In this document: piece by piece, positions 1-19,445 of the stretch
Layout of the letters: every line of letters starts with the position of its first letter
Numbering within the stretch: the first letter of the stretch is position 1
Assembly (NCBI GenBank): GCA_965223415.1
Contig: OZ245002.1
Coordinates: 1,856,001-1,920,000, forward strand
DNA from: Myxococcota bacterium
GTDB taxonomy: Bacteria; Myxococcota_A; UBA9160; UBA6930
Length of the DNA stretch: 64,000 nucleotides
Direction of reading: 5' to 3'
Notes under the pieces: generated by a model
The model's input: the letters and a program-made list of their open reading frames with translations, nothing else
Databases searched by the model: none
What the model was told of the DNA's origin: nothing
Made by a program: the position numbers and the translations under genes

Positions 1-556
1 CTAGGTTTGACTTCCCAGCACCTGTCGAGCCCACGACTGCGCTGTGCCGGCTTACCAGTCCTCCCACGCTGATATCCGCTGAGATACCCGAAGCAGAAGC
101 GATGGTGCCGATGGGAACGGTCCCCTTTTTCTTACTGGTCCAGCCGTATATGGTCCGAAGGTCTTCAATCGTGACCAGGTGTACCTCGTCACCAACGGTG
201 GGATACTGTCCGACTCCCCTCTCGAACTCTCCACCGAGGCCCTCCCCGAAAAGGACAATCGTCATCCACCGATAGCCTGAGAGCTTAACCTGGGTGTCCG
301 CCTCGAGCGCGACGACGACTGGCTCGGAGCCGGCCGGCGGCGCGGCATCTGCCCCGATCTGTGTGCACACACCGTAGAGGTTGGTGTACCCGAGAGGGAT
401 GCGGAGAAATCCGCCGATCTGTCCCACCCGATGAGACTCACCGCCGACCAACACCAAGGTGGACGGCATATCCTCTCGCATGCGTACGCGAACGATGGCG
501 CCAGAGACCGATGCGACTTGACCTACGTAGGTGGGGTCCGCGAGAGCCATCGTCAT
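1..556 (-). CDS. herA: HerA-family ATPase/helicase (HAS barrel plus Walker A), partial, runs off the left edge
   Basis: Not in the ORF track. Manual translation from ATG at 556, directly after the sir2 TAG at 559-557, gives MTMALADPTYVGQVASVSGAIVRV...RVGQIGGFLRIPLGYTNLYG...FERGVGQYPTVGDEVHLV...LVSRHSAVVGSTGAGKSNL, typical of a HerA N-terminus with Walker A. Confidence 0.9.
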   Translation of the reverse strand, partial: MTMALADPTYVGQVASVSGAIVRVRMREDMPSTLVLVGGESHRVGQIGGFLRIPLGYTNLYGVCTQIGADAAPPAGSEPVVVALEADTQVKLSGYRWMTIVLFGEGLGGEFERGVGQYPTVGDEVHLVTIEDLRTIYGWTSKKKGTVPIGTIASASGISADISVGGLVSRHSAVVGSTGAGKSNL

Positions 557-1765
557 CTAACCCGCTGTCATCGATCCGAGAAGCGCACAGAAGCAGGCGA
601 AATCACCGATCTTCATTCGGCCCGCTCCAGATCCTTCTCCGGCTCCTTCACCCGCTCCTGCAGTCTCGAAGACCAGCCTCAATAGGGAGGGACTTTCAAC
701 GGCGGCCCACGCGGCGCGCTGGCCACCGATGATTCCGCTTTCCGGGCCGAGAACGATCATGTTAGAACGCTGCAACGCACGTCGCGCGAGGTCGGCTTCC
801 TGATCCGGCTCGTTGAATTGTAGGGCGTACACATGGGTTCGGGGTCTGTTCTCAAGAGCCCCGAAGATCAGATTGTTGATGTGTTCGTCGCTAAAGCTGA
901 ATCCTGCGACGACGAGCAGCGCATCATCTTGGTCGAGGAAGCGGCTAAGGCGGTCGGTAAACGCGACATAGGGTTGCTGACGCGATTCGTCGTACTTCTG
1001 GAACGACGGCAGGATCATCTCTCCGGCCGGATCCGGTTCGCCCCGCGTGATCCGCTCTCGTCCGTTGACCAACGTGCGACGCCATGTGACGGAGCCGTGC
1101 ATCTTCCACAGGCGCGTCCAGTTTGCACCTGGCGCGGTCTCCGACCGACGCAGACTGTCCGGGTGGAAGAACGGTCGATATCCACCCACGAAGCCATCGA
1201 ACGTCGGCACCCGCTCGCTCTCAAGGGCGTGTTCAATCAGCACGTCGTAGTTCACAGTGAAGATCTCTACGGGTTGCTGACGCGCCGTCTTCACGAGCCA
1301 TCGCGCAAGCTGCCGATGCGGGAGATTGTCGCCGATTGCGGCCAGATTGGGGTTGACGGACTCCGCGATCGTCCTTCGGATCGACTTCTCGAGCTCGTCG
1401 AGTTCTCCTCTTCCGAGGCCGCACAACGTATCTGCGTCACTGACGGCGGAAAGCATCATGCGGACGCGGGAGAGGATGCTCTCCACGTTTGGATTGACTG
1501 CCGTTTCCTTGCATTCATTTTCGATCAGGTCCCAAGCAGGTGCGAACTTGTCGCCGAGTTCTCCTGCCGCCGTCTTGCAGAGCGCGGTCAATTCTGGCAC
1601 GGCCGGAATGAGAGGTTTCTTGCTGCCGTCGCCGCTCTCAACTGTGACAGCACAGGAGGTTCCCGCACCAAACAGAAAGGCGATCGGCTTGTCGTGGCGC
1701 GCGAGATGGTCCTTCAGATCGGAGAGGATCTTCTGGGTGTCGTGTGACGGCGGCGCGTCGCTCAT
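557..1765 (-). CDS. SIR2-like (SIR2_2) NADase of a Sir2-HerA defence system
   Basis: Motifs FLFGAGTS, FTVNYDVLIE, LWKMHGSVTW and GFSFSDEHIN. Coupled to herA. Likely start is ATG 1765, because the ORF-track start at 1783 lies inside the IS end. Confidence 0.9.
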   Translation of the reverse strand: MSDAPPSHDTQKILSDLKDHLARHDKPIAFLFGAGTSCAVTVESGDGSKKPLIPAVPELTALCKTAAGELGDKFAPAWDLIENECKETAVNPNVESILSRVRMMLSAVSDADTLCGLGRGELDELEKSIRRTIAESVNPNLAAIGDNLPHRQLARWLVKTARQQPVEIFTVNYDVLIEHALESERVPTFDGFVGGYRPFFHPDSLRRSETAPGANWTRLWKMHGSVTWRRTLVNGRERITRGEPDPAGEMILPSFQKYDESRQQPYVAFTDRLSRFLDQDDALLVVAGFSFSDEHINNLIFGALENRPRTHVYALQFNEPDQEADLARRALQRSNMIVLGPESGIIGGQRAAWAAVESPSLLRLVFETAGAGEGAGEGSGAGRMKIGDFACFCALLGSMTAG

Positions 1766-1941
1766 CCGCTTGCTCCCTGTCATTTCTCACGGGCATGACT
1801 CACCTTTTCTCACGGGCATGACCCAGGCCTGACCGCGGTTTTCTCACGAGCATGACCCACCCCAGATGGGGGGGGCTCAGGAGGAGGCCGGTCCCGTGGC
1901 CGACCCAGGCCATTCTGCGGCGCCAGAGGAGGCGCAGGCAG

Positions 1942-3654
1942 ATGGCGTATCGCGAGGTCGGCATGTGGGAGATTCTGGAGGTGCTCCGCCGGGCGCACCG
2001 AGGCGAGAGCCAGGTGGCGATGGCGCGGGCCACGGGGCACACGCGCAAGACGATCCGGCGCTACGTGCAAGTCGCCGGGGAGCTGGGCTGGGTCGCCAGG
2101 GGGCCGAGGGAGCCGGATGAGGCCCTGGCCCAAGGGGTGGCGGCTCGGGTGCGGCCTGTGCCCACGCAGCGCGACGCGGGAGAGAGCGAGGCGCAGCTGG
2201 CGCCGCATGCCGACCGGATCCGAGCGTGGCTCCAGCCCGAGGCGGGTGGCCGAGGACTGCGGCTGACGAAGGTCTACGACCTGCTCGGGCGCGAGGGCGT
2301 GCGCGTCCCCTACAGCTCGCTCCACCGCTTCGCGGTCCGCCACTGCGGGTTCCAAGACCGGCGCCGGGTGACGGTGCGCATGGCGGCGGTGGCCCCCGGC
2401 GAGCTCGCCGAGGTCGACTTCGGCCGCCTCGGCATGGTCTGGGATCCGGAGACCGGGCGCCGCCGCACCGTTCATGCCCTGATCGTCACCCTCGTCCATA
2501 GCCGCCACCAGTACGTCCACGTGACCTACGGCCAGAAGCTCCCCGATCTGCTCGAGGGGCTCGAGGACGCCTGGGCGTTCTTCGGCGGGGTCCCGGTGCG
2601 CGTGGTGCTGGACAATCTGAAGGCGGCCGTCACGAAGGCCGACCGCTACGAGCCGATCTTCCAGCGCACCTTCGCCGAGTACGCCCACTACCGCGGCTTC
2701 GTCATCGATGCCGCCGTGCCTCGGCATCCCAAGGGCAAGCCCCACGTCGAGCGCCAGGTGCAGTACGTGCGCGAGCGCTTCTTCCGTGGCGAGCAGTGGC
2801 TGGGACGCGACCACGTGCAGCGCGAGGCCGCGCGCTGGTGCCTGGAGGTCGCCGGCCAGCGCACTCACGGGACGACGCGCAAGAGGCCCCTGGCCGTCTT
2901 CGAGAACACGGAGAAGCCGGCTCTGCAGCCCCTCGTGCGCCCGCGCTTCGATCCGCCCACCTGGGCCGAGGCGAAGGTCCACCCCGACCACCACGTCCAG
3001 TTCCAAAAGGCCTTCTACACCGTGCCCACCCGCCACGTGGGCAAGCGCGTCTGGGTTCGCGGCGACTCGAAGCTCATCCGCATGTACGTCGACGGCGAGT
3101 GCATCAAGACCCACGAGCGCGTGGACCCTGGCTGCCGCTCCACCGACTACCACGACTATCCGCCCGAGCGTGCCCCCTACGCCATGCGGGACCCGGAAGC
3201 GGCGATCCGCCAGGCGCGCGACCAGGGGCCTCACATTGGGCGCTTCGCCGAGAAGCTCCTGGCCGGCCCCTTCCCCTGGTCCAAGCTCCGCCAGGCCCAG
3301 AAGCTGCTTCGCCTCGGCCACAAGTACGGCCTGCCGCGCGTCGACGCCGGCTGCCGCAGGGCCCTCGCCTTCGACCTCATCAACACGAAGCGCCTCGAAC
3401 GCATCGTGGCCGAAGGCATCCAGCCGCTCGGCGACCCCAGCACCCCCGGACAGCTCCTGCTCCTGCCGCCCCGTTTCCTGCGCCCGCAAGGGCACTTCAC
3501 CCACCCCAACGACAACCCCGACAAGGAGACCACCCCCCATGACGACCGAGATCAACCCGTCCCTCAAGACCCTGCTCAAACGCCTGAAGCTCTCGGGCAT
3601 GCTGGCCACGCTCCCCGATCGCGTGGCCTACACCCGGAAGACGAAGCTCCCTGA
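1942..3654 (+). CDS. istA: IS21 transposase IstA (DDE)
   Basis: N-terminal HTH, GELAEVDFG, VLDNLKAAV and KGKPHVERQV motifs. Start taken as MAYREV at 1942. Confidence 0.92.
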   Translation: MAYREVGMWEILEVLRRAHRGESQVAMARATGHTRKTIRRYVQVAGELGWVARGPREPDEALAQGVAARVRPVPTQRDAGESEAQLAPHADRIRAWLQPEAGGRGLRLTKVYDLLGREGVRVPYSSLHRFAVRHCGFQDRRRVTVRMAAVAPGELAEVDFGRLGMVWDPETGRRRTVHALIVTLVHSRHQYVHVTYGQKLPDLLEGLEDAWAFFGGVPVRVVLDNLKAAVTKADRYEPIFQRTFAEYAHYRGFVIDAAVPRHPKGKPHVERQVQYVRERFFRGEQWLGRDHVQREAARWCLEVAGQRTHGTTRKRPLAVFENTEKPALQPLVRPRFDPPTWAEAKVHPDHHVQFQKAFYTVPTRHVGKRVWVRGDSKLIRMYVDGECIKTHERVDPGCRSTDYHDYPPERAPYAMRDPEAAIRQARDQGPHIGRFAEKLLAGPFPWSKLRQAQKLLRLGHKYGLPRVDAGCRRALAFDLINTKRLERIVAEGIQPLGDPSTPGQLLLLPPRFLRPQGHFTHPNDNPDKETTPHDDRDQPVPQDPAQTPEALGHAGHAPRSRGLHPEDEAP

Positions 3655-4345
3655 GCTCGACCTCCTGGAGCTCGTCCTTCAGGACGAAGTCGATCGCCGC
3701 GACCACAAGAACCTCGAGACGCGCCTTTCCCGCGCCGGCTTCGAGGAAGAGCAGACCCTCGAGGCCTTCGACTGGGATGCCCCCGTCACCTTCGATCGCG
3801 ATCGCGTGAAGGACCTCTTCTCCCTCGGCTTCCTCGAGCGCCACGAGGACGTCATCCTGCTCGGCCCCGTGGGCGTGGGCAAGACCTTCCTGGCCTCCGC
3901 CCTGGGACACGCCGCCTGCCGGGCCGGGCACCACGTCCTCTTCCTCCGCGTCGACCGCATGTTCCACTGGCTCCACCAGTCGCGAGCCGACCTCTCGACC
4001 GAGAAGGTCTTCCGACGCCTCCTCGCCCCGGACCTCCTCGTCCTCGACGACTTCGGCCTCCGGCGCCTCTCCGCCGAGCAGTCGAGCGATCTCTACGAGG
4101 TCGTCCTCGAACGCCACCGCCGCGCTTCGACGATCGTCACCAGCAACCGCGCCATCGAGGAATGGATCCCCCTCTTCGACGACCCCATCCTGGCCCAGAG
4201 CGCCCTCGACCGCCTCGCCCACAACGCCTACCAGCTCGTCATCGAGGGCGAGAGCTACCGCAAGCAACAGCGCCCCGGCGAAATGCCGACCCACACCCCC
4301 GCCAATCCCCAGCGCCGAAGCCGCCGCCGAACCCGCGTCCGCTGA
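3539..4345 (+). CDS. istB: IS21 helper AAA+ ATPase IstB
   Basis: Begins MTTEINPSL; motifs GPVGVGKT, LLVLDDFG, TSNR and ALDRLAHNA. GGAG lies upstream of ATG 3539. Confidence 0.93.
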   Translation: MTTEINPSLKTLLKRLKLSGMLATLPDRVAYTRKTKLPELDLLELVLQDEVDRRDHKNLETRLSRAGFEEEQTLEAFDWDAPVTFDRDRVKDLFSLGFLERHEDVILLGPVGVGKTFLASALGHAACRAGHHVLFLRVDRMFHWLHQSRADLSTEKVFRRLLAPDLLVLDDFGLRRLSAEQSSDLYEVVLERHRRASTIVTSNRAIEEWIPLFDDPILAQSALDRLAHNAYQLVIEGESYRKQQRPGEMPTHTPANPQRRSRRRTRVR

Positions 4346-4486
4346 CGCCAAACAAGGAGCGTGCTACCTCATCCACCGGCCCGGGACCCATGGGTCAACC
4401 CCGTGAGAATACCTGGGTCATGCCCGCGGGAATCGACACTCCCTCCTCAGCCGTAGGTTCCGGCGCGCGGCCGGATCCCTCGTGCC

Positions 4487-4681
4487 CTACCGTCCCTGCC
4501 CGGACTTGTTCTTCGTGGCATCTACCAGTCTGTAGGTCATTCCCTTCCTCGGGGTCGGGGGAAGACGCTCGCCCTTTACCGAGGTGACCTCCTTGCCCTG
4601 CCCTCCCCGGGGCCCGGTCTGCTGATACTGACCGGATCTCGGCACCTTGGCGCCTGGTCTGAGCTTTCTGAACTTGCCCAT
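4487..4681 (-). CDS. YjzC-like small basic protein (64 aa)
   Basis: MGKFRKLRPGAKVPRSGQYQQTGPRGGQGKEVTSVKGERLPPTPRKGMTYRLVD matches the PG..P.SG.Y...GPRGG...GxxLPPT pattern of YjzC-like proteins. GGAGG Shine-Dalgarno upstream. Confidence 0.75.
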   Translation of the reverse strand: MGKFRKLRPGAKVPRSGQYQQTGPRGGQGKEVTSVKGERLPPTPRKGMTYRLVDATKNKSGQGR

Positions 4682-4747
4682 CTTTGAACCTCCAGATGCG
4701 TCCGGGCTAGCACCTGCGGCCCGGCCCACTCAACAAAACGCATCATC

Positions 4748-4793
4748 TTGACGATTTCTATGAGAATGATACTTTAGGCGGACGGGCTCGCAA
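4748..4793. promoter_or_regulatory. Putative overlapping divergent sigma70-type promoters
   Basis: Plus strand: TTGACG (4748-4753), 16 nt, TACTTT (4770-4775) with TGn extension. Minus strand: TTGCGA (4793-4788), 16 nt, TATCAT (4771-4766). This is an AT-rich patch in GC-rich DNA, with an imperfect ATCAT...ATGAT dyad. Confidence 0.5.
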
Positions 4794-4811
4794 GGGCCCC
4801 AGGGAGGAGAG

Positions 4812-5948
4812 ATGGCCGGCGAGTCCATCGCTGCAAACGTCGCCCGGCTACGGCTGGATCGGCGGCTAACCCAGGAGGAACTCAGCCGAAAGGCCGGGCT
4901 CTCGCGGGTCGCGCTCGGGAAGATCGAGCGGGGAGCGGTCGTACCGCGGGCCCAGACTCTGGCCGACCTGGCCAAGGCGCTCGGGGTCTCGGTCGGTGAG
5001 CTTGTGACCCCGGTCCGGCCCCTTGAGACCGTGCGGTTCCGGGCCCATGCGCGGGTGCATTCCCGGGAGCAGATCCTCGCCGAGGTCGGGAAGTGGCTGG
5101 ATGCGTATGCAGCGCTCGAGACCGAGCTCGGGGACGCCCGGCCATTCCGCTTCGCGGCCGACGCGGGCCGCACCGTGCGCGGCACTCCGGTCAACGCCGC
5201 CGCGGCGGCCCGCGTAGCCATTGGGATCGGGCCCGAGGAACCCGTGCGCGACATCTGCGGGCTCCTGGAGGAGAACGGGGTCAAGCTCCTGCTGCTGGAC
5301 AAGAAGAGCGAATCGTTCTTCGGTCTCAGCGTCGGAGCGGGGGACGGTGGGCCTGCCGTCGTCGTGAATACCTGGGACCGGATCTCCGTCGAGCGCTGGA
5401 TCTTCACCGCGGCGCACGAGCTCGGGCACCTTCTGCTCCACCCTGCGGAGTACCAGCGCGACGCCACGGAGCTGCCGCTGCCAGCGGAGCGGGAGGCCGA
5501 CACCTTCGCGAGCCACTTCCTGATGCCCGAGGCCGCATTCGCGAAGGAGTGGGAAGAGACCCGGGGCCACCCGCTCCTCGTCCGCGTTCTCAAGGTCAAG
5601 CGCATCTTCAGGGTGAGCTACAAGACCGTGCTCTATCGCCTAGTCGAGTCCGGACGCGAGGCCAAGGGCGTCTGGCCCGCGTTCCAGGGCCAACATCGAG
5701 GCCACTTCGGCAAGACCCTTCGGAAGGCCGAAGAGCCCAAGGCGCTGGAGAAGAGCGAGTTCGCATGGAACTGGAGCCGCGCCGGCGAGCCGGAGGGACT
5801 CTCACAGCACGATTTCGTCGAGGATCGCCTCTCGCGACTCGTGCGGCAGGCGCTCGAGCAAGAGCACATCTCTCTCGGGCGCGCCGCCGAAATCCTGGGT
5901 ATCACCCGCGAAGATATGAGGAAGCAGGCGCGTGAGTGGGCGGGGTAG
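4812..5948 (+). CDS. XRE HTH fused to ImmA/IrrE (M78) metallopeptidase
   Basis: HTH segment LTQEELSRKAGLSRVALGKIERG. Zinc motif FTAAHELGHLLLH...EREADTFASHFLMP. C-terminal ISLGRAAEILG. SD GGAGGAG. Confidence 0.92.
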   Translation: MAGESIAANVARLRLDRRLTQEELSRKAGLSRVALGKIERGAVVPRAQTLADLAKALGVSVGELVTPVRPLETVRFRAHARVHSREQILAEVGKWLDAYAALETELGDARPFRFAADAGRTVRGTPVNAAAAARVAIGIGPEEPVRDICGLLEENGVKLLLLDKKSESFFGLSVGAGDGGPAVVVNTWDRISVERWIFTAAHELGHLLLHPAEYQRDATELPLPAEREADTFASHFLMPEAAFAKEWEETRGHPLLVRVLKVKRIFRVSYKTVLYRLVESGREAKGVWPAFQGQHRGHFGKTLRKAEEPKALEKSEFAWNWSRAGEPEGLSQHDFVEDRLSRLVRQALEQEHISLGRAAEILGITREDMRKQAREWAG

Positions 5949-5954
5949 ATACCG

Positions 5955-6449
5955 ATGGCGCGAACGGTCCTTCTCGCCGACGCGGACGTGCTCATCGACT
6001 ACCGCGAATCGGAGATCGGAATCCTCGAGCTCGTGGTGGAGCATCTCGGGCGAGTCGTCGTGCTGGCGCCCGTGCTCGGCGAGGTTCGCGGCGTGACGAA
6101 GACCCAATGCGCGAGTCTCGGCCTTGAGGTTGTCGATGTGGAGACGGAGCAGATGCTGCGGGCCGCCGAGGTCGAGTCGAGTGTCTCCTTCAATGACCGC
6201 CTGTGCCTCGTCGCATGCCGGGACGAAGGGTGGACCTGCGTGACGAACGACGGCGCGCTCCGGCGCCTCTGCAAACGGCATGGCGTCCAGACTAGGTTCG
6301 GCCTCGGCTTGATGGTGGATCTCGTTGCGGGGGGCGCCCTCACGAAGCGGCGTGCCGTGACGGTGGCGCGACAGATCCAGGCTGCGAATCCGCTGCACGT
6401 CAACGAGCACGTCTTGAGCCGTTTTCTCGCTGCTCTCCAAGACCTGTAG
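5955..6449 (+). CDS. PIN-domain ribonuclease-like protein
   Basis: Acidic PIN residues in LLADADVLID, VLGEV, SFNDRLCL and VTNDGALR. Starts 6 bp after the XRE-ImmA gene. Confidence 0.8.
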   Translation: MARTVLLADADVLIDYRESEIGILELVVEHLGRVVVLAPVLGEVRGVTKTQCASLGLEVVDVETEQMLRAAEVESSVSFNDRLCLVACRDEGWTCVTNDGALRRLCKRHGVQTRFGLGLMVDLVAGGALTKRRAVTVARQIQAANPLHVNEHVLSRFLAALQDL

Positions 6450-6470
6450 GGCCAGAGGAGGAGGAGTTTC

Positions 6471-9400
6471 ATGCGTCTCCAAGACGAACAACTTCTCTTG
6501 TCCGCCTCCGATCTGTCGGCCCACTTGGGCTGCCAGCACCGCACGCAACTCGACCGCCGCGCCGCAATCGGCGAGCTCGAAGCGCCGCCGCCGGATCCGA
6601 TGTTGGCCGTCCTCCAGGTGCGCGGCCTTGCGCATGAGAAGGCGTACGTCGAGCATCTGGAGCGGATCAGATCGATCCGTCGAGTCGCTCTGGCGGATTC
6701 GGCGCTCGATTTTGATGGGATGGCGGCGACTCGGGAGGCGATGGCGTCCGGCGCCGATGTCATCACCCAGGCTCCGCTCGTAGAGGGCCGCTTCCGGGGC
6801 GTCGCCGACGTCCTACTGCGCATCGACCGGACCTCGCCGGTCCTGGGGAAGTGGTCCTACGTCGTGGTGGATACCAAGCTCGCCACGGAGACGCGCGCGG
6901 GAACAGTGCTGCAGCTCTGCCTCTACACCCGCATTGTCGGCGAGATCCAAGGCCTTCTTCCGGAGGAGTTCTGGGTGGTGTCGCCGGGCGGTCTGGAGAG
7001 CCCCGAGAGGTTCCGAACGACCGACTACCTGGCCTTCGCGCGACGCATCGAGCAGCAGGTCAGGGAGGCCGTCGATGGCGCCCTGCCTGAAGAGCCTACG
7101 GCCCCGGAACCCGTCAACGAGTGCGACATCTGCCACTGGTGGAGTCGCTGCGACAAGCGGCGCCGCGAGGCCGACCACCTCTCCTTCGTAGCCGGGATCA
7201 GCCGCCTGCAGCGGCGTGAGCTGGAGCGGGTGGGAATCAGCACGCTCACCGCACTCGCGAGCGCAGCGTTCCCATTCGAGCCGGCGCCCCAGCGGGGATC
7301 CGGGGAGAGCTACGAGCGAGTTCACCACCAGGCCCGCGTGCAGCGGGACTCGATCGGGAAGGCACCCGTCGTGGAGTTCCTGCCCGAGGCTGGGGAGTCC
7401 GGGGCAGAGGCGCGTCGGCTCGGGCTGGCGCGCCTGCCGGAGCCTTCGCCGGGAGACGTCTTCCTCGACCTGGAGGGTGATCCTTTTGTCGAGGGCGGCG
7501 GGAGGGAGTACCTCTTCGGCTGGGTAACGATCGGAGACGATGGAGAGCCCGTCTACACCGCGCGTTGGGCGCTCGATGCCGCGGCGGAGAAGACCGCCTT
7601 CGAGACCCTGATCGACACTCTCCTGGCCCGGTGGGAACAGCATCCGGACTTCGCGGTCTACCATTTCGGCGTCTACGAGCCAGCCGCGTTGAAGCGCTTG
7701 ATGGGTCGCCACGCGACTCGCGAGGAGGAGCTGGACCGGCTTCTCCGCGGAGAGCGCTTCGTGGACCTACACGCCGTGGTGCGCGAGTCGCTGCGGATCG
7801 GCGTCGAGACCTACGGCCTCAAGCAGCTCGAGGCGGTGCACGGCTTCGAGCGCGACCTCGAGCTTCGGGAAGCCACACTGCACAAGCACCGGTTCGAGCG
7901 CGCACTGGAACTCGAGACCCCCGACGACGCGCCCGAAGGTTCCGCAGAGGGTGTAGAGCGCTACAACCGCGACGATTGCGTCTCGACGTGGCGGCTTCGC
8001 GACTGGCTGGAGGAGAGGCGAACCGAGCGGATCGAGGTCAGCGCTGAGCTGCCGCGCCCCGTGCTAGGCGAAGGCATCCCTTCGGAGGAACAGGAAGAAC
8101 GCTCCGCCGAGATCCAGGCGCTCATGAACGCCCTGCTCGAAGGCGTGCCGGACGCGCGCGACGCCCGGAGCCCTGAAGAGCAGGCTCGCTGGACACTGGC
8201 GCACCTTCTGGAGTGGCACCGCCGCGAGGGAAAGGCTGGCTGGTGGGAGTTCTTCCGGCTCGCGGACCTACGACCATCGGACCTGCGCGACGAGAAGAAC
8301 GGGCTCGTGGGCCTCGAGTTCGTAAGCCGCACGCAGGAGGGAAGGAAGCTCCCCGTCGATCGGTATCAGTTCCCCCCGCAGGATCACGATGTTCGCCCGC
8401 GCCGCGACCTCTACGCCGCGAAGGACGTGAAGCTCGGGACCGTGGAGGACATCGACCTCGCCGCCCGCACTGTCGATGTGAAGAAGCGGCGGGATTCGGT
8501 CGATGTGCACCCCGAAGTCGTCTTCGCGCACGAGAACGTGCCGGCGAAGCCGATCCCCGCCGCACTGCAGCGACTCGCCCAGGAGGTGGTCGAGAACGGC
8601 GTCGAAGGGCCGGGGCGGTTCCGTGCCGCTCGCGACCTGCTTCTGGGACGTCCTCCACGTCTGCGCTCCGGATCCACGGGCGAACTCGCTCACGAGGGCG
8701 AGACGACCCGCGAGTCCGCGGTCCGGCTCGCGCTCGACCTGGCAGAGAGCGTCCTTCCCATCCAAGGGCCACCGGGGACGGGAAAGACCTACACGGGGGC
8801 TCGTGTCGTGTGCGAACTCGTGCGCAAGGGACAAAAGGTCGGGATCACGGGCCCAAGCCATAAGGTGATCCGGAACCTGCTCGACGAGCTGGTCAAGGCG
8901 GCCGCCGAAGACCACCTGAACCTCAGCATCCTCCAGCGCGTCCGCCAGGGCACCGTCACCAAGGGCAGGCCGATCCAGGAGAGCGATAAGTCCGACTGCT
9001 TGTCCACCGCTCTGGCAGCCGGAGAGGTAGACGTCGCGGCAGGCACGGTCTGGGCGTGGGCAAGGGAGGACACCGAAGCCTTGGTGGACACCCTGATCAT
9101 CGACGAAGCGGGCCAGCTTTCGTTGGCGAACGCGATCGCGGCGTCCACCGGCGCGCGCAACGTGATCCTCCTAGGCGATCCCCAGCAGCTGGAGCAGCCC
9201 ATCCAGGGTAGCCATCCGGAAGGCTGCGACACCTCCGCCTTGGAGCACCTGCTCGGCGAGCACGACACCGTGCCGCCCGACCGAGGCCTCTTCCTGGACA
9301 CGACCTGGCGGCTCCACCCGTCGATCCGTGCCTTCACGAGCGAGCTCTTCTACGAGGACCGGCTCCTCCACCACGCTCAGTGCGAGGGACAGGCTCTGAT

Positions 9401-9911
9401 CGGGCCCACCCCGTTTTCCGGTGCGAATCTCTGGCTCGAACCGGTCGAGCACACCGGGAACACCAGCTCCTCACCAGAGGAGGTCGAACACATCGCCCAG
9501 CTCGTAGAGGCGCTTGTGAGGCCGGGGATCGAATGGGTCGACTTCCATGGCGTTCAGCGGCCCCTCACCCACGAGGATCTCCGCATCGTCTCGCCGTACA
9601 ACGCCCAGGTCGCTGCTCTGAAGAGCGCTATTCCGGCGGCAGCGGAGAACATCGGAACCGTGGATCGCTTCCAGGGCCAGGAGGCCCCGGTGGTGATCTA
9701 CTCCATGACGACGAGCTCCACTGAGGAAGCCCCTCGCGGCCTGGAGTTCCTGTTCAGCCTGAACCGCCTGAACGTCGCTACCTCTCGCGCCCGCTGCACC
9801 TGCATCCTGGTTGCGAGCCCCTCCCTCCTCGACGCCGAGTGCAGGACGCCGCGACAGATGAAGCTGGTGAATGCGCTTTGCCGGTATCGGGAACTGGCCC
9901 GGACCGTGTAG
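6471..9911 (+). CDS. TM0106-family RecB-like nuclease / RNase H-like / SF1 helicase fusion
   Basis: LSASDL...GCQH, ADVLLR...DTKLA...QL (PD-D/ExK), CDICHWWSRC, DVFLDLEGDP, QGPPGTGKT, IDEAGQ, GDPQQL, GTVDRFQGQE and NRLNVATSRA. Confidence 0.9.
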   Translation: MRLQDEQLLLSASDLSAHLGCQHRTQLDRRAAIGELEAPPPDPMLAVLQVRGLAHEKAYVEHLERIRSIRRVALADSALDFDGMAATREAMASGADVITQAPLVEGRFRGVADVLLRIDRTSPVLGKWSYVVVDTKLATETRAGTVLQLCLYTRIVGEIQGLLPEEFWVVSPGGLESPERFRTTDYLAFARRIEQQVREAVDGALPEEPTAPEPVNECDICHWWSRCDKRRREADHLSFVAGISRLQRRELERVGISTLTALASAAFPFEPAPQRGSGESYERVHHQARVQRDSIGKAPVVEFLPEAGESGAEARRLGLARLPEPSPGDVFLDLEGDPFVEGGGREYLFGWVTIGDDGEPVYTARWALDAAAEKTAFETLIDTLLARWEQHPDFAVYHFGVYEPAALKRLMGRHATREEELDRLLRGERFVDLHAVVRESLRIGVETYGLKQLEAVHGFERDLELREATLHKHRFERALELETPDDAPEGSAEGVERYNRDDCVSTWRLRDWLEERRTERIEVSAELPRPVLGEGIPSEEQEERSAEIQALMNALLEGVPDARDARSPEEQARWTLAHLLEWHRREGKAGWWEFFRLADLRPSDLRDEKNGLVGLEFVSRTQEGRKLPVDRYQFPPQDHDVRPRRDLYAAKDVKLGTVEDIDLAARTVDVKKRRDSVDVHPEVVFAHENVPAKPIPAALQRLAQEVVENGVEGPGRFRAARDLLLGRPPRLRSGSTGELAHEGETTRESAVRLALDLAESVLPIQGPPGTGKTYTGARVVCELVRKGQKVGITGPSHKVIRNLLDELVKAAAEDHLNLSILQRVRQGTVTKGRPIQESDKSDCLSTALAAGEVDVAAGTVWAWAREDTEALVDTLIIDEAGQLSLANAIAASTGARNVILLGDPQQLEQPIQGSHPEGCDTSALEHLLGEHDTVPPDRGLFLDTTWRLHPSIRAFTSELFYEDRLLHHAQCEGQALIGPTPFSGANLWLEPVEHTGNTSSSPEEVEHIAQLVEALVRPGIEWVDFHGVQRPLTHEDLRIVSPYNAQVAALKSAIPAAAENIGTVDRFQGQEAPVVIYSMTTSSTEEAPRGLEFLFSLNRLNVATSRARCTCILVASPSLLDAECRTPRQMKLVNALCRYRELARTV

Positions 9912-10028
9912 CTGCCCTTCCCCCCAATCCCCGGGACCCGTCCGACCCAGCGATTCCCTTGCTCCTACCCCTCAGAGCGTGGACCCACGCGTCGATGGTC
10001 GCGCATTGCCGAAGCCCCAGACGGCGAG

Positions 10029-12824
10029 TCAAAGGGATAGAGCGGGGCGGTTGTGCTTGCGAAGGATCTCAGGCAGGTCGGAGGCCCGGAAGGAGACGTC
10101 CCAGGCCCAGCGGCCGAAACCGCCGTGCTCGTTGACGGCCTCGGCCCACTCGGCCAGGTAGCTGCGCTTGGTGCGCTCCTTCGGGGCGTCCTGGCCCTTC
10201 ACCTCGAGCACGAGCTTGGTGCCGTGGGTGAGCTGGATCAGGAAATCGGGCCGGTACTTGTGGACGCCACCCTGCCAGACGTAGACGACCTCGAAGCCGA
10301 GGTGGTCGTTCTTGACCCAGGTGGCGACGTTGTCGTCGTGATCCAGGGTGAAGGCCTCGGCCGCCTCCCAGGTGCTGTCGTAGACGCAGAAGTTGATGTG
10401 GGAGCGCTTGGTGTGCTCGCAGGGCTTGGCGGTGTACCAGGCGGGCATGTCCCCCGTGCTCCGCAAGGGGCGCTCGCGGTCCAGCACCAGGCGCCGTTCG
10501 ACGGCGTTCTCCGGGCGGATCCGGTCGAAGAGGTGCTGGACGATGCGGTTCATGTTGAGGGCCAGGAGCACCCGGCGCCGGAGAGGATCCTGGTCAAAGA
10601 TGGGCGGCTCGATTTGGACGCGCCGAGCCTCCAAGAAGCGCTGGACGATGCCGACGAGCTGGCCCAGCAGAGCCTCGCGGCCCCCCTGCCATCCAGGCTC
10701 GATCCGGTCGTACTCCTCTGCGGCGATCCGGAAGGCCAGGGTCTGGAGGCGATAGCGGCGGCCCAGGTCTTCGAGGTCAATCTTGGAGATCTTCGAGACG
10801 TCGGGCTTGCCCTCGACGGTGGGGGCCATCTCCACGAGCGTCGGGGTCTCGTAGGCGTCGAGCTTCAGTAGCGGGACGTCCTTCGGGTCGAGGACGAGTT
10901 TCTGGCCGTAGACCTGGTCGATGCGCACCACGTTCGGCCAGGAGATCTCGAACTCCTTCTTCTCCGGATCGGGCTCGACGCGAACCTTCGGCTTCTCGGG
11001 CGGCGGGGGCGTGGCATCCCCTCCCTCGTGGGGGAGGAAGGTGAAGGGCACCCCGAAGATGTTCACGTACTCGGGCCGGAAGAGGCCGTCGTCGCCCTGC
11101 TCGTAGGACGTGCGCCGCAGGCCTCGGCCGACCACCTGCTCGCAGAGCAGCTGGCTCGTGAAGGCGCGGAGGCCCAGGATGTGGGTCACGGTCTTGGCGT
11201 CCCAACCCTCGGAGAGCATCCCCACGGAGATCACCTTGCGGACCTGGGCGCCGAGCTTGCCGGGCTGGCCCACGGTGTCCACCGTCCCGCGCAGCAGCTC
11301 GGCGAGCTCGTCCTTGGTGAGCTTCTTCTTCGGCCCCTCGTCACCTTCCTCACTGGCCGGCGGGTCGTCTGCCGAGACCGGCTCCTCTTGCGCCTCGGCC
11401 TTCTCCAGCACCTTCGAGTCGATGTGGAGCGTGGTGTCGGGGTTGCAGAGCCCGGGGATGTCGATGCGTCCCCGGTCGAAGGCGTACTTGATCCGGGCGG
11501 CCGTCTCGGTCCGGTTGGCCACCGTGATCATCACCGGCGGGGTCGGAGCGCCGTCCGCCTCCCAGCGTTCGAAGGTCTCCTCCCAGTCGCGGCCGAGCAG
11601 GTAGTAGGCCGTGGTCACAAGGTCCGGGAGGTTCTCGTGGGGCTCGGCCTTGCGATTCAGGTCGTCGGCCACGTGCGGGTAGATGTGGAAAAGCTTCGGG
11701 CGGTAGGTCTGGGCGTCGAGTTCGCCCCATGAGCGCACGACCACGCGCGGCGTCTTCACCAGCCCGGACTCGATCGCGTCCGACAGACCGAAGTCGCTCA
11801 CGATCCACGAGAAGAGCGACTCCTCGGCGGCGCGCTTGCCGGTCGGGGTGAAGGGTGTGGCCGAGAAGTCGTAGCAGCCAAGGATCCCCCGGGCACGGTG
11901 GATGCGGTCCAAGCCGCCGACCCACTTGGTGGCCTCCTCGCGCTCAGCCTTGGTGGCCTTCACCGCCTCCCCGGCCGGAAGGCGCCAGGCGTGGTGGGCC
12001 TCGTCGTTCAAGACGAGCAGGTTGTGCGCGCCCGCCAGGTCGCCCAGCACCGCGCGTACGTAGGCCTCGTCGCTCTTCGGCCCCCGCTTGTCCACGCTGC
12101 GCTTCTTGGAGATCTGCTCGGCGCTCTGCCAGTCGAGCTTGTGCCAGTTGATGACCCGCACCTTGCCCTGGCGGAGCTTCTCCCTGAGGGCGGGCGGCAC
12201 CACGTCGAATCGGTCGTAGTAGTTGTCGGGGTCCTCGGGTTTCAAGACCTCCAGGCGGTTGCGGACGGTGAGCCCCGGCGCGACTACGAGGACGCTCCTG
12301 GCGAAGCGGCGATCCTGGGGGTTCGCCACCTTATTGAGCACGTGCCAAGCCACCACCATGGCCATGACGATGGTCTTGCCGCTGCCGGTCGCCATCTTGG
12401 CGCACAGGCGCGAGAAGCCGCCGCCGTCGCCGTCGATCTCGATGCCCTGCCGGTCCGCCGCGGGGGCCTCGGTGAGCCAGATCAGGGTCTCCACCGCCTC
12501 CAGCTGACAAAAGAAGAAGCGGCGGCTCTCGAAGGTCTCCGGATCCTGCCAGTGTTCAAGGAGGCGCTTCGTGATGCCCGAGACGCCGGGATACCCAGCC
12601 GCCCGCCAAGCCGCTACGCGGGGGCGGATCTGGTTCACGAGCGGCAGCTCGATGAAGGTTCCCGGGTCCTGGAAGGAGTCGAGGCCCGGCGTGGCCACCA
12701 CGTAGCCCGCCGGTCGCCGGCCCGCGACGCGCTGGAACTTCTTCGCCTCGTGGACGTAGCCCCAGTGCTCCTTGGGCTCGTCGAAGGGCGTGTTGATGAT
12801 AAGGTGGTCGATGCCTTCGGCCAC
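10029..12824 (-). CDS. Type III-like restriction enzyme Res subunit (SF2 helicase plus PD-(D/E)xK nuclease)
   Basis: KMATGSGKT, NDEAHH, SATP, LSEGWD, QVVGRGLRR and C-terminal YRPDFLI...LEVKG. Confidence 0.9.
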   Translation of the reverse strand: MAEGIDHLIINTPFDEPKEHWGYVHEAKKFQRVAGRRPAGYVVATPGLDSFQDPGTFIELPLVNQIRPRVAAWRAAGYPGVSGITKRLLEHWQDPETFESRRFFFCQLEAVETLIWLTEAPAADRQGIEIDGDGGGFSRLCAKMATGSGKTIVMAMVVAWHVLNKVANPQDRRFARSVLVVAPGLTVRNRLEVLKPEDPDNYYDRFDVVPPALREKLRQGKVRVINWHKLDWQSAEQISKKRSVDKRGPKSDEAYVRAVLGDLAGAHNLLVLNDEAHHAWRLPAGEAVKATKAEREEATKWVGGLDRIHRARGILGCYDFSATPFTPTGKRAAEESLFSWIVSDFGLSDAIESGLVKTPRVVVRSWGELDAQTYRPKLFHIYPHVADDLNRKAEPHENLPDLVTTAYYLLGRDWEETFERWEADGAPTPPVMITVANRTETAARIKYAFDRGRIDIPGLCNPDTTLHIDSKVLEKAEAQEEPVSADDPPASEEGDEGPKKKLTKDELAELLRGTVDTVGQPGKLGAQVRKVISVGMLSEGWDAKTVTHILGLRAFTSQLLCEQVVGRGLRRTSYEQGDDGLFRPEYVNIFGVPFTFLPHEGGDATPPPPEKPKVRVEPDPEKKEFEISWPNVVRIDQVYGQKLVLDPKDVPLLKLDAYETPTLVEMAPTVEGKPDVSKISKIDLEDLGRRYRLQTLAFRIAAEEYDRIEPGWQGGREALLGQLVGIVQRFLEARRVQIEPPIFDQDPLRRRVLLALNMNRIVQHLFDRIRPENAVERRLVLDRERPLRSTGDMPAWYTAKPCEHTKRSHINFCVYDSTWEAAEAFTLDHDDNVATWVKNDHLGFEVVYVWQGGVHKYRPDFLIQLTHGTKLVLEVKGQDAPKERTKRSYLAEWAEAVNEHGGFGRWAWDVSFRASDLPEILRKHNRPALSL

Positions 12825-12831
12825 GGTGCCC

Positions 12832-15525
12832 TCAGTCCAGCGGGATCACGCGGAGGGACTCGATCCCTCGGTCGTCCACGATCTTGACCGCGATGCGTCC
12901 GTGGGCGCCCTTGGCGAAGGGCAGCGACACGGTGCCCCGGTACGCCTCAATGGCCTCCTCGTCGATCTCCGCCTTCAGACTTCGGGCTATCCGCGCCCAG
13001 CCGTCCTTGGGCCCCGCCATGGGAAAGAACATCTGGCGCGGGTAGAGGCTGCGGCCGTCGTAGTCGGTATCGAGCATCCAGAGCGCGATCTTGGCCACGT
13101 CGCCGCTGTCGAGCTTGCCAGTCCGCGTGTCGTAGTAGTCGAAGCCGTGGATCTCCACCTCGAGTAGGCCCTTGTGCTCATACTCAGCCGCGTTCCGCAC
13201 CTCGACGTCCGGCTGGCCGACCAGCCAGAAGGACTCGTTGCTGGCGCGCTTCTTCTTCAGGTCCTCCGTGAGAAGATCCGGGTTCATCTGCGCCTTGAGG
13301 AGCGTCATCCCCACCTTCGAAGGAGTCAGCTCGTCGATGTCCTTGGCTGCCTCCGGGTCGAACTGGAAGGCGGCGAAGACCAGGAGCCCCGGCTTGGGCG
13401 CGAGCGTCCGCGCCTCTTCCCAAGCGGACTCCACCGCCCGTTGCTCCAGTGGCGCGTGCTCGGGACCGAAGTGGATCACTACGCGCTCCGGCTTGCCCTC
13501 CTCGCCCGGATCGGTCTCCGCCTCGGCGTGAAGCCAGCGTGTCCCCTGGAGGGGCTCGACGCGAGTGAAGCGGATGCGCTGCCCGGTGCGGCCCCGGATC
13601 CCGGTCTTGAGCAGCTCCTCCCGCCACTCGGCGTGGCGCAGGGTCTCGCCCTGGCGCGCCACCGAGGAGTCTGCCGGCGCGGGTGCCCCCTCGGAAGCCG
13701 CCTCGGCCGCGGCCTCTACTGCGGCCTCATCCACGGGCTTCACCACCGGCGCGGGGACAGCCTCCACGGTGAAGGGCCCTGCGATCCGTGCCTTACTCTT
13801 GTCGACGAGCGGCTGGTCGTAAAGGGTCTCTTGGTCCGCGTACTTGGCGATCGCCGCATCGATCTCCTCGCGGCTCATGCCCTCAGTGATCTCTGGATTG
13901 TTGGCGATGCTTTTCAGGGTGATGTGGGGAACAGTCTTGTATACGAAACCGCTCCCGACGCCTTCGTCAGGGTGTTTCAGCTCATAGAAGTCGTACAGAG
14001 CCGTCGCCAAGCGCTGCTTCGCCAGAGCAGTGGCGACTCTCGAGGTGTCGCACGTGGCCCAGCGCCGACCCCATTGTTCGGCCACGTAAGCCGTGGTTCC
14101 GGAGCCGCAAGTAGGATCGAAGACGAGGTCACCGGGGTCCGTTGTCATGAGGACGCAACGCGCGATGACCTTCGTGACGGTCTGAACAACGTAAACGTTC
14201 GGCTCGAGAAAACTCCCAGCGCCGGTATCCGTCCAGACGTTTGTGAGCGGAAGGACGGGGAAATCCGCGAGATAGCGAACGTAACGAAGCGAATTGGTGG
14301 TCGGATGTAGTCGCCCAGCAGCGGAGAGCCTGTCAAGCCCCTCAGGATTGGTCGTCTTCCAGCGCTGGTTGTACTTCTTGCCCGCGTGGGTGTACTCGGA
14401 GCGCGGGTTCTCAGATTCGAGAGACGTCGGTTGAAAAACCCTCGCGCCATGGGGGATTCCCGAAGGACCCTCACGCTCCGTGGCTGCCATCGGCCTGCGG
14501 TGACCGCCAACCTCGAGATACCGATAGCCCGAATCACCGCCAGTGCGCTTCTCGAAGTACAGCTGATTGAACTTCACCTTCCTGGCATCGCGGGCGTACC
14601 AGATCAAGAAGTCAGACGTACCGGGAAGCAACGATTGCGAAAGGCCTCCGGTCTTCTGAACGACGATGACCTTCACGAAATTCTTGTAGCCGAAGACCTC
14701 ATCGAGAAGCTCTCTCACGTGGTGCAGGTTCTCATCGCTGATCTGAACGAAGCAGCTACCACTTTCGTGGAGAAGGTCCCTAGCCAGTAGCAGCCGGTCG
14801 CGGAGGTACGTAAGGTACGAATGGAGGCCCAACTCCCAGGTGTCGCGGAAGGCCCGGATGGTTTCCGGCTCTTGGGTCAAATCCTCATCCTTCCCGTCCT
14901 TCACTACCCGGCGGTTCACAAAGGGCTGGAAATTGCTCCCGTACCGGATGCCGTAGGGCGGGTCGATGTAGATCATCTGAACCTTGCCGCCCATGCCCTC
15001 CTTCTCGAGCAGCGAACTCATGACGAGGAGCGAATCACCGGCAATCAGGCGGTTGGTCCAGCCATGGGGGTGCTTGTAGAACTCGAGGGCCTCGCGAAGG
15101 GGTGGATTCTCCTCGGGCTTCTCGAAGAGCGCGAGCTGGCTGGGGCCGGTCTGCGAGGCCCCGCCGCCGCCCGCCGGATAGGCGCCGTTCCGCTTGCGCA
15201 CAGCGGACAGGATGGTCTTCGGGTCCATGCGCTCGTGGACGTGGAGCGAGACCGTGGGGACCTCGAAGCTCGTGTGCTCCGCCTTCCCAGCCCACTGGAG
15301 CGAGGGGTCGAGATGCGGGTCGTAGGCGTAGGCCTTGCGGGCGGGCTCCGGCGGGTCGGTCTCCGGAGTGACCAGGCCGACCGGCGGGTTGTTGGCCCGC
15401 TTCTCGTGCGTGTGCTGGTACTGCTCGATGGGCTTCTTGCCGCCGGCCGCCTTCTTGCGGCGGCCGCCGCTGGCCTTCCGGGTTCCGGTCGCCTTGCCTC
15501 CGCCGGTCTTCTTGCGCGCCGCCAT
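12832..15525 (-). CDS. Type III-like adenine DNA methyltransferase (Mod)
   Basis: YIDPPYG (motif IV) precedes DPTCGSGTT (motif I), the beta-class order. Lies directly upstream of Res. Start taken as ATG 15525 (MAARKK). Confidence 0.92.
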   Translation of the reverse strand: MAARKKTGGGKATGTRKASGGRRKKAAGGKKPIEQYQHTHEKRANNPPVGLVTPETDPPEPARKAYAYDPHLDPSLQWAGKAEHTSFEVPTVSLHVHERMDPKTILSAVRKRNGAYPAGGGGASQTGPSQLALFEKPEENPPLREALEFYKHPHGWTNRLIAGDSLLVMSSLLEKEGMGGKVQMIYIDPPYGIRYGSNFQPFVNRRVVKDGKDEDLTQEPETIRAFRDTWELGLHSYLTYLRDRLLLARDLLHESGSCFVQISDENLHHVRELLDEVFGYKNFVKVIVVQKTGGLSQSLLPGTSDFLIWYARDARKVKFNQLYFEKRTGGDSGYRYLEVGGHRRPMAATEREGPSGIPHGARVFQPTSLESENPRSEYTHAGKKYNQRWKTTNPEGLDRLSAAGRLHPTTNSLRYVRYLADFPVLPLTNVWTDTGAGSFLEPNVYVVQTVTKVIARCVLMTTDPGDLVFDPTCGSGTTAYVAEQWGRRWATCDTSRVATALAKQRLATALYDFYELKHPDEGVGSGFVYKTVPHITLKSIANNPEITEGMSREEIDAAIAKYADQETLYDQPLVDKSKARIAGPFTVEAVPAPVVKPVDEAAVEAAAEAASEGAPAPADSSVARQGETLRHAEWREELLKTGIRGRTGQRIRFTRVEPLQGTRWLHAEAETDPGEEGKPERVVIHFGPEHAPLEQRAVESAWEEARTLAPKPGLLVFAAFQFDPEAAKDIDELTPSKVGMTLLKAQMNPDLLTEDLKKKRASNESFWLVGQPDVEVRNAAEYEHKGLLEVEIHGFDYYDTRTGKLDSGDVAKIALWMLDTDYDGRSLYPRQMFFPMAGPKDGWARIARSLKAEIDEEAIEAYRGTVSLPFAKGAHGRIAVKIVDDRGIESLRVIPLD

Positions 15526-15711
15526 CGGTCCCCCGTCTGCTCTCCGCGGGCCATTGTACCGCCCACGGGTGTGAAACTGCTGAGAACCTGGGGGACAGGC
15601 CACCGCCACGGCCTGGAATGCGTCCTGGTTCTGCGAGCGGATCGCCAGCCTAGGGCCCCTCAGCTTGCTCGGACCCACCGCCTGGTTCTCGCCGCAAGAT
15701 AGAATGCTCGC

Positions 15712-16644: not shown

Positions 16645-17377
16645 GGCGACGCCAGCGCGGGCGAGAACCGAAATCGACGGGACGTAGCCAGACCGCGTCT
16701 CGGCCGAGATTGGAGGTAAGTCAGTCGCGACTTGCCGATGTAGGAACCCTTCGACGAAATCGTTGTCGAACCAAGCGGTTCGCCGGAAGTTGACTTGCTC
16801 TTATCTTGCTGAATGCCGATCCCGGCAGTGGTCTGGGGCTACGGCAAGATAAGAGTGGCCCAACGGGCGGCGAAGTCCTTGACCCCGCGTTGGATTTCGT
16901 GGGCCACTCGCTGCGGAGTGGGCCACTTCGGCCCACACGCGGAACGCGCCCGAACCGCACTACTTCGTTGCAGTCGAACCGCAAAGAGGGCGCCGGTAGA
17001 GCCGCGCCATCGCAGCCGATCGACACGCGGTTGGCATCTGTCGCTACCGCACGACGACAGGCTCGCACGCAGCACTCGGCACTGATCTTGTGTGGCGGGC
17101 ACGCACTGGTGGTCGCTGGCTCCCGACGGAGAGCCAGTCGAGCGCGCCGCCACTACGGCGTCTGAGCGGTAGCCACGACGGCACGAGCACTTGCGCGGCG
17201 AGCGCCCGGCTGGCCGCAACGGCACGGCTCTTGCTCTCTCCCTCCACACCTCCCCCGGATGCGGGGGAAGTGTGGAGGCAACAGCCAGCAAGCAGCGAGG
17301 GGATGCCTGAGATGGCGTCGGCTGCCTTGCTGCTCTCCAGCCGGAAGGGCGTCTCCCCTGCGGTACGATGGCAGCTC

Positions 17378-19378: not shown

Positions 19379-19396
19379 CCCCTGAGCTAAGGGCCC
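19324..19396 (-). tRNA. tRNA with CAU anticodon, most likely tRNA-Ile2 (lysidine)
   Basis: GGGCCCT TA GCTC AGGGGTTA GAGC A CCCGG CTCATAA CCGGA GGGTC GCACG TTCGAAT CGTGC AGGGCCC A forms a cloverleaf. G1:C72 excludes initiator tRNA. Followed by CCT, so CCA is not fully encoded. Confidence 0.9.
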
Positions 19397-19445
19397 GCCC
19401 CGATGCTAGCGGTTGCGCGCCTCGCGGGGGCCGACTCGCGCGGGC

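Follow-up and report, generated by a model that had tools for sequence, protein, structure and literature searches.

Abutting defence genes around a RosmerTA-type rmrA-PIN cassette in a Myxococcota bacterium: a probable mosaic of independent modules

Introduction

Fused helix-turn-helix (HTH)-DUF955 genes upstream of genes for PIN-like toxins were assigned by Matelska et al. 2017 to a three-component class of toxin-antitoxin systems, for which self-cleavage and a transcriptional control logic were proposed (PMC5499597). In RosmerTA (RmrT/RmrA; Millman et al. 2022, Ernits et al. 2023), ImmA-type RmrA antitoxins are combined with diverse toxins, PIN-like ones included (PMC10440598; 10.1101/2022.05.11.491447). 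There is precedent for a self-cleaving repressor in RosmerTA (PMC10440598), and a construct with a deletion of rmrA could not be transformed (10.1101/2022.05.11.491447). The Sir2-HerA and Nezha anti-phage systems comprise types I-III (PMC13434337, PMC11472057, PMC11514289). In the latest classification Sir2-HerA is a two-gene system, and DNA ends are reported to gate its NADase (PMC13434337). These statements, and those made below on the same papers, refer to the accessible parts of the publications. Here, we analyse the first 10 kb of a window of 64,000 nucleotides (nt) from a Myxococcota bacterium (positions 1,856,001-1,920,000 of the single 5.83-Mb contig OZ245002.1, about 67% G+C), where an rmrA-PIN pair, a gene for a TM0106-family nuclease-helicase, a sir2 gene and a part of herA lie side by side.

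An earlier note on this DNA took the stretch for one undescribed bidirectional defence module, with two divergent arms co-induced by a fused sensor-repressor. We arrive at a different view. With a probability of roughly 70%, the 10-kb stretch is a mosaic of independent modules that happen to abut in a tRNA-Met-linked defence island. The gene content itself is as the earlier note had claimed: family scans confirm the herA part, sir2, an IS21-family insertion sequence (IS), a yjzC-like gene, the HTH-M78 gene, the PIN gene and the gene for the TM0106-helicase.

Results

The rmrA-PIN pair recurs in many genomes, in changing company. A scan with one genome per species yielded 41 loci, with 66-93% identical XRE-M78 proteins, that span at least seven phyla (Myxococcota, Latescibacterota, Binatia, Gemmatimonadota, Gammaproteobacteria, Nitrospirales and metagenome-assembled genomes of Acidobacteriota). 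A PIN gene directly follows rmrA in 32 of the 41 loci, and in 17 of the 22 full-length pairs the gap is 6 nt. The earlier note had expected homologous modules to neighbour the same cargo genes. When the window proteins were searched in these loci by tblastn, Sir2, HerA and YjzC were each found within 10 kb in 0/41, and the TM0106-helicase in a single locus (L011; 1/41), so that this expectation essentially fails. A selection of 196 flanking genes falls into 152 clusters. A Pfam scan of 97 cluster representatives (at least 120 amino acids) returned a mixture of housekeeping, restriction-modification and other defence-type genes, and none of these representatives had a SIR2_2, DUF87 or YjzC match.

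The borders of the modules are visible in alignments with individual relatives. Positions 4698-8330 of the window align with L011 as a single block of 88.5% nucleotide identity, and the homology starts at 4698, which marks the left end of the cassette. In the two loci with the closest relatives of the TM0106-helicase (L053 and L054), DNA homology begins exactly at 6469/6470, at the start codon of the helicase gene. The segment in between, from 4698 to about 6470, is best described as a self-contained, horizontally mobile toxin-antitoxin or defence cassette of the RosmerTA type. It thus belongs to a known kind, and the claim of an undescribed system does not hold for the XRE-M78/PIN pair.

The first gene of the cassette encodes an rmrA-like antitoxin or repressor (4812-5948, plus strand; PADLOC RmrA model PDLC03949, 3.7e-35; NF052239, spr1629 repressor/antitoxin), and the second a PIN-domain nuclease (5955-6449, plus strand; PF01850, 2e-7). 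As the earlier note had seen, the first rightward gene codes for an HTH and an HExxH peptidase in a single chain, and it heads a tight operon. The gaps are 6 nt (rmrA-PIN) and 21 nt (PIN-TM0106), and no promoter or terminator was found between the genes. RmrA consists of an HTH_3 domain (residues 11-64), an M78 zinc peptidase domain (residues 183-277; PF06114, 1.3e-16) with the motif H202-E203-x-x-H206, and a conserved C-terminal helical domain (residues 285-378, approximately) outside the other two. The residues H202, E203 and H206 are invariant in 21 RmrA sequences, and D9, D11, E43, D81 and D99 are invariant in 21 PIN sequences. By analogy with related systems, PIN is likely the toxin of the pair. 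An AlphaFold model of RmrA built from 21 close homologues had a mean predicted local distance difference test score (pLDDT) of 57.7, too low for a fold search.

The cassette shares with RosmerTA an antitoxin with N-terminal HTH and an ImmA/M78 peptidase with intact HExxH motif, a co-oriented and tightly spaced toxin gene that travels with the antitoxin, reported PIN-like partners, mobility, and location in defence islands. It differs in that the match to the PADLOC RmrA profile leaves the final 100 or so residues of RmrA uncovered, and in that a third gene, for the TM0106-helicase, follows in the operon of the window. Moreover, the window PIN matches 0 PADLOC families and thus no catalogued RmrT model, which, in view of the diverse toxins of the family, does not exclude membership. 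A sequence search of the PDB with PIN also gave no match. Finally, a conserved pair of overlapping divergent promoters, as seen in our cassette, is not mentioned for RosmerTA in the accessible text.

Could RmrA instead act mainly as a transcriptional switch for neighbouring defence genes, in the manner of CapH/CapP, with PIN controlled by transcription only and not neutralised as a protein? RmrA matches the PADLOC capP (1.9e-17) and capH (1.3e-7) models as well as CapP and CapH chains in the PDB, three loci have a SMODS-domain gene that points away from the cassette, and such logic is exactly what Matelska et al. proposed in the accessible part of their paper (PMC5499597). However, the capP and capH matches fall far below that of the RmrA model. 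The conserved C-terminal 90 residues outside the HTH and peptidase domains, which have a weak UPF0175 antitoxin-like match (1.4e-4, under the cut-off), would fit a toxin-binding domain, and the fixed 6-nt spacing of rmrA and PIN is typical of toxin-antitoxin pairs. We therefore regard a purely transcriptional role as distinctly improbable. CapH/CapP of CBASS and ImmR/ImmA of ICEBs1 resemble the window in having an HTH repressor and an M78 protease, and divergent promoters in one short control region. Unlike in these systems, repressor and protease of the window form one chain, and the partner is a PIN toxin encoded in the same operon. The separate HTH and M78 genes beside a CBASS operon that define CapH/CapP are not found here, as the chain is fused and no CD-NTase is present in this region of the window.

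The control region between yjzC and rmrA was correctly located by the earlier note, once the IS21 element is removed. Given a yjzC start at ATG 4681, the gap is 130 bp long (4682-4811), and the part that belongs to the cassette (4698-4811) holds overlapping divergent promoters and a predicted operator. The leftward promoter (minus strand; -35 TTGCGA at 4793-4788, 16 nt spacing, -10 TATCAT at 4771-4766) satisfies the strict rule of the promoter scan, with 0.0 expected from shuffles. The rightward promoter (plus strand; -35 TTGACG at 4748-4753, 16 nt spacing, -10 TACTTT at 4770-4775) fails the strict rule, as its -10 box matches in 3/6 positions only. It was detected by an extended -10 rule that was devised in this analysis, on the strength of the TG at 4767-4768. 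The two -10 boxes overlap at 4766-4775, again as previously noted.

The imperfect dyad that the earlier note reported fares less uniformly. The half-sites ATCAT (4742-4746) and ATGAT (4766-4770) are present, and the core ATCAT...TTGACA...ATGAT recurs in 16/40 homologous upstream regions. In the window itself the dyad is weak, and a repeat search (seed 6) recovered a GGGCCC palindrome only. The common core in the 140 nt before rmrA consists of ATCAT, TTGACA, 13-15 nt, ATGATAACTT and finally, close to the ribosome-binding site, the motif GTCAAG.

The leftward promoter is conserved as well. Under the strict rule, and with the -35 box required to lie 12-26 nt before the rmrA ATG, it occupies the same position in 26 of 40 upstream regions (mean 0.61 and maximum 4 in 300 shuffles). 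The 26 loci share descent, so that the count demonstrates conservation and not 26 independent events. We regard the predicted two-way promoter as real, and as a part of the rmrA-PIN cassette. A divergent gene begins within 400 nt in 19/39 loci. The leftward promoter is present in 13/19 loci with such a gene and in 12/20 loci without one. This equal frequency gives no sign that selection keeps the promoter for the expression of cargo. The cassette border at 4698 is only 16 nt from the start codon of yjzC, so that yjzC should be transcribable only from within the cassette in this genome, which we take to be a local juxtaposition.

Among the genes found to the left of the cassette elsewhere, two defence-type groups recur. 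A SMODS-domain gene lies on the minus strand about 190-240 nt upstream of rmrA in L017, L025 and L032, and a divergent gene for an AAA_14-DUF4143 ATPase is found in L012, L014, L019 and L041, with loci from two phyla among them.

These data bear directly on the interpretation of the earlier note, namely that natural selection has shaped a single bidirectional module, with a yjzC-sir2-herA arm and a PIN plus TM0106 arm that are both switched on by way of the fused HTH-peptidase. The overlapping divergent promoters with their common -10 region, the lack of room for a promoter of yjzC's own, the retention of the leftward promoter in 26/40 cassettes, and divergent neighbours such as SMODS, AAA_14-DUF4143 and KAP NTPase genes all speak in its favour. 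On the other hand, related cassettes do not adjoin Sir2, HerA or YjzC and only once TM0106, the leftward promoter is as frequent without a divergent gene as with one, IS elements have disrupted the left arm (see below), and RmrA or PIN were found near 0/82 Sir2-HerA relatives. Taken together, this makes a single selected module very improbable. What survives of the idea of co-induced arms is that the leftward promoter is the sole such element for yjzC and overlaps the rightward one; the left arm is dead, and the pairing of the arms is not conserved.

The left arm appears to be a Sir2-HerA NAD-depletion system preceded by yjzC, now inactivated by two IS events. The sir2 gene (557-1765, minus strand; PADLOC PDLC04093, 1.9e-135, profile positions 4-385 of 395; PF13289, SIR2_2) has an intact open reading frame of 402 amino acids that encodes a SIR2-family protein of the NADase type, matched over the full profile. 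Its start is likely ATG 1765, which is preceded by AGGGAG, since the alternative ATG 1783 falls within the IS21 element. The adjacent herA gene is represented by its N-terminal part only (2-556, minus strand; PADLOC HerA PDLC04105, 9e-32, profile positions 4-322 of 576). The reading frame extends past the left edge of the window to a total of 335 amino acids and then stops in an IS, so that a full-length HerA ATPase does not adjoin sir2. The C-terminal half (profile positions 318-574) is located 1.16 Mb away, at G000:C1:3017553-3018332. A single 2.5-kb IS, with a 2.3-kb IS21-family element nested in it, is divided between the two sites, and each half of herA ends at one of its parts. A 7-bp duplication, CCTTCTC, is present at both herA/IS junctions. 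In-silico excision of the IS rejoins the halves to one open reading frame of 623 amino acids. In view of the duplication and the restored frame, we conclude that herA is interrupted by an IS and predicted to be non-functional, whichever way the repeats were assembled. The separation of 1.16 Mb itself reflects either an IS-mediated rearrangement or an assembly join across the 2.3-kb repeat. Each half has one copy of this 2.3-kb IS21-family element next to it, and the two copies are in direct orientation (G000:C1:1852390-1855572 and 3018380-3022345). When the two copies were compared for signs of a cointegrate, the inner flanks agreed (ATCTCA) and the outer flanks differed.

The second IS is the IS21-family element between yjzC and the ribosome-binding site of sir2 (1778-4438, plus strand; 2661 bp). 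It has istA and istB (NF033546, 208 bits; NF038214, 240 bits), terminal inverted repeats TGTC...GACA and a 5-bp target duplication, CTCCC, at 1773-1777 and 4439-4443, as typical of the family, and it is present in the genome in 7 identical copies. It lies between sir2 and the only candidate promoter. Contigs from 4 sequencing runs (2 samples, 1 study) did not contain an IS-free joint at this site; they break at the ends of the IS21 element. The genome is altogether rich in IS elements, with about 18 copies of the 2.3-kb IS21-family element and about 8 copies of the 2.5-kb IS, and several of these copies sit inside others.

Like Sir2-HerA and Nezha, the left arm has a SIR2 NADase gene directly ahead of a HerA ATPase gene. 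Unlike in these systems, herA is split by an IS, sir2 is severed from its promoter, and a YjzC-like gene lies upstream. This gene (4487-4681, minus strand) encodes a small basic protein of 64 amino acids. Its PF14168 score of 25.0 bits is exactly the gathering cut-off (25), and relatives score 27.5 and 21.7 bits. The start ATG 4681 has a GGAG 8 nt upstream, and without the IS21 element yjzC would lie 55 nt upstream of the sir2 ATG 1765. YjzC was considered as a Sir2-HerA component and rejected, with 0/82 Sir2 loci positive by tblastn at 1e-3, for which a low-complexity query of 64 amino acids is a weak probe. In a phylum sample of 400 other genomes, YjzC occurs in 8 and never adjoins Sir2 or HerA. 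Four of the YjzC relatives in the phylum are convincing, and two of these come first in a trio of genes, for YjzC, a protein of about 200 amino acids of unknown function and an HTH-less M78 peptidase (L166:6454-8448, minus strand; L168:1152-3117, plus strand). On the basis of these two trios, YjzC may be tied to M78 peptidase modules and not to Sir2-HerA.

The last gene of the rightward operon (6471-9911, plus strand) encodes a protein of 1146 amino acids, in which a TM0106-family double nuclease is fused to a superfamily 1B (SF1B) helicase. The protein scores 244.3 bits with TIGR03491, above the curated cut-off of 97.45, and has Pfam matches to PF13482, PF12705, AAA_11 and AAA_12. The nuclease part consists of a Cas4-like iron-sulphur PD-(D/E)xK domain and a DEDDy exonuclease. 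The helicase part is similar to Upf1 and Dna2, and by sequence matches IGHMBP2, Upf1, Sen1 and DNA2 in the PDB. The residues D113, K136, Q148, Y152, C21, C218, C221, C227, D333, E335, D432, Y498 and D502 are shared without exception by the window protein and the forms linked to Sir2 in other genomes (see below). We take them to make up the PD-(D/E)xK, four-cysteine (Cas4-like) and DEDDy motifs, so that the residues expected of TIGR03491 members are all present. The protein resembles Mokosh (MkoA/MkoC), where an Upf1-like SF1B helicase is also joined to a nuclease in one protein, and eukaryotic Dna2, where a PD-(D/E)xK iron-sulphur nuclease is joined to an SF1B helicase. In contrast to Mokosh, the N-terminal half is of the TM0106 type with Cas4-like nuclease and DEDDy exonuclease, and MkoA/MkoC match the helicase only (residues 860-1133). 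The PLD domain expected for Mokosh was not detected in the protein by Pfam or PADLOC.

In the phylum sample, the TM0106-helicase occurs in 19/400 other genomes, and none of these is among the 3 genomes that hold a Sir2 relative. RmrA, PIN, Sir2 and HerA were all absent from the 1.5 kb around 15 near-full-length relatives from the same phylum. The neighbours of the relatives are variable and often defence genes (HsdM, BrxA/B, SNF2, GmrSD, WYL). In the window and in L011, the gene starts 21 nt after PIN with a strong ribosome-binding site, and the short gap, the ribosome-binding site and the lack of a promoter or terminator make it likely that it is co-transcribed from the rmrA promoter here. 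We propose the TM0106-helicase as a candidate for a stand-alone DNA-end-processing defence protein that was captured behind PIN in this lineage.

Relatives of the window Sir2 provide a different context for TM0106-family proteins. A metagenome scan retrieved 79 Sir2 loci, 36 of them at least 50% identical to the window Sir2. In this close clade, a TM0106-family gene lies directly upstream of sir2 in 17 loci and is missing in 6, and the flank is too short in 13. One of the latter (L085) shows the end of the fused form, which leads to 18/24 informative loci, defined as those with a TM0106-family gene seen upstream or with at least 1.5 kb of flank without one. The distant clade (29-40% identity) has 0/26. 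The upstream gene is separated from sir2 by 0-30 nt, often with an ATGA overlap, and nine full-length forms that were scanned score 215-269 bits with TIGR03491 and contain PDDEXK_1 and RNase_H_2 domains. In L078, L081, L087, L089, L094-L096, L098, L109 and L111, the gene encodes a TM0106 double nuclease (Cas4-like and DEDDy) of about 500 amino acids and ends at the start of sir2; L078 additionally has a gene for a UvrD-like helicase in front. L101:2470-5865 is a full nuclease-helicase fusion, 46% identical to the window protein. In the Sir2 tree, the 500-amino-acid nuclease type appears in every subclade, the two fused types (L101 and L085) are placed on separate branches, and the window Sir2 is the sister of the whole TM0106-linked clade (support 94/94). 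In the literature searched, which did not extend to subscription papers and supplements, no description of the TM0106/TIGR03491 protein or of a TM0106-Sir2-HerA trio was found. The nearest relatives, with a translationally coupled TM0106 double nuclease as the first gene, thus differ from Sir2-HerA and Nezha as presented in the accessible parts of the papers searched.

It is tempting to conclude that the TM0106 nuclease-helicase and Sir2-HerA of the window are functional partners in a system of three components, with a nuclease to process DNA ends, an NADase and HerA as the motor, and that rmrA-PIN and yjzC merely lie in between. The contrast between close and distant clade, the two occurrences of the fused form beside Sir2-HerA on separate branches, the position of the window Sir2, the catalytic residues common to the window protein and the 500-amino-acid forms, and the reported gating of the NADase by DNA ends (PMC13434337) agree with this interpretation. 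Nevertheless, we consider it unlikely for the window. Here the genes are divergent, on opposite strands and 4.7 kb apart, and the window protein is merely 23-25% identical to the Sir2-linked 500-amino-acid forms. Sir2 and HerA are missing from the neighbourhood of its closest relatives (72-74% identity), whose genomes also lack a Sir2 relative. The genome of L011, which has the same rmrA-PIN-TM0106 block and whose completeness is not established, likewise gave no Sir2 match.

To the right, the operon is followed by a type III restriction-modification pair (10029-15678, minus strand; res 10029-12824, mod 12832-15678; NF046055, 1076 bits; PADLOC MTase_III, 7.5e-163), which is an independent neighbouring system. 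Then come an HNH endonuclease gene (15712-16641), an open reading frame for a tyrosine integrase (17090-19375) and a tRNA-Met gene (19322-19396, minus strand), with housekeeping genes beyond. This order suggests that the defence genes sit in a tRNA-Met-linked genomic island. An Rfam scan of positions 1-20000 returned tRNA only. An att repeat of tRNA-Met was found nowhere else in the genome, so that the left end of the island is undefined. Further away, the window encodes a protein of 1216 amino acids with a double zinc ribbon, an adenylate/guanylate cyclase domain, an AAA_16 ATPase domain and TPR repeats (32984-36631, minus strand).

Discussion

In the mechanism that we envisage for the rightward operon, dimers of RmrA, with their N-terminal HTH on a palindromic operator, would shut off both of the overlapping divergent promoters. 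At the same time, RmrA would prevent PIN from acting as an RNase, probably by means of the conserved C-terminal domain of the antitoxin. In response to phage or damage, the M78 peptidase would become active, upon which the RmrA chain would be cleaved, PIN would be freed and the operon derepressed. The TM0106-helicase, captured behind PIN, would probably be expressed from the promoter of rmrA. What the sequences show is the anatomy, the borders of the modules, the conservation of genes and motifs, and the IS damage. That RmrA binds its operator and cleaves itself, that PIN is toxic and that the genes act against phages is attributed here by analogy with the protein families.

Several observations do not sit easily with a mosaic of independent modules. 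In this genome, yjzC has nothing promoter-like upstream except the leftward promoter. In conjunction with the 16-nt distance to the cassette border, this means that before the IS insertion both arms may have been under a common operator. Elsewhere, this Sir2-HerA clade shows a strong link to TM0106-family nucleases, and the presence of TM0106 and Sir2 within 5 kb of each other in the window may not be due to chance. Lastly, the gene calls in the related loci are heuristic calls of this analysis.

A more speculative possibility is that the rmrA cassette acts as a two-way switch that moves between genomes and is gated by its protease. Through the conserved leftward promoter, the left neighbours of the cassette (yjzC-sir2-herA in the window; SMODS, AAA_14-DUF4143 or KAP NTPase genes elsewhere) would then be placed under the sensor-repressor that also controls PIN. 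In the window, the cassette would drive the TM0106 nuclease-helicase as well, and thereby a DNA-end nuclease of the kind that this Sir2-HerA clade usually has as its third partner. We judge this quite unlikely. If true, RNase, DNA-end processor and NADase would have been released together before the IS elements struck.

For the window, the consequence of our analysis is mainly a correction. Adjacency in a defence island, even when combined with a shared control region, failed as an indication of a system once relatives were compared, and one half of what had been proposed as a system no longer works. Beyond the window, a nuclease dedicated to the processing of DNA ends could supply the upstream step that is missing for the TM0106-linked Sir2-HerA clade, given the reported gating of the Sir2-HerA NADase by such ends (PMC13434337). 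Finally, a RosmerTA-type cassette that keeps overlapping divergent promoters across phyla would be able to impose its regulation on the genes next to which it lands.

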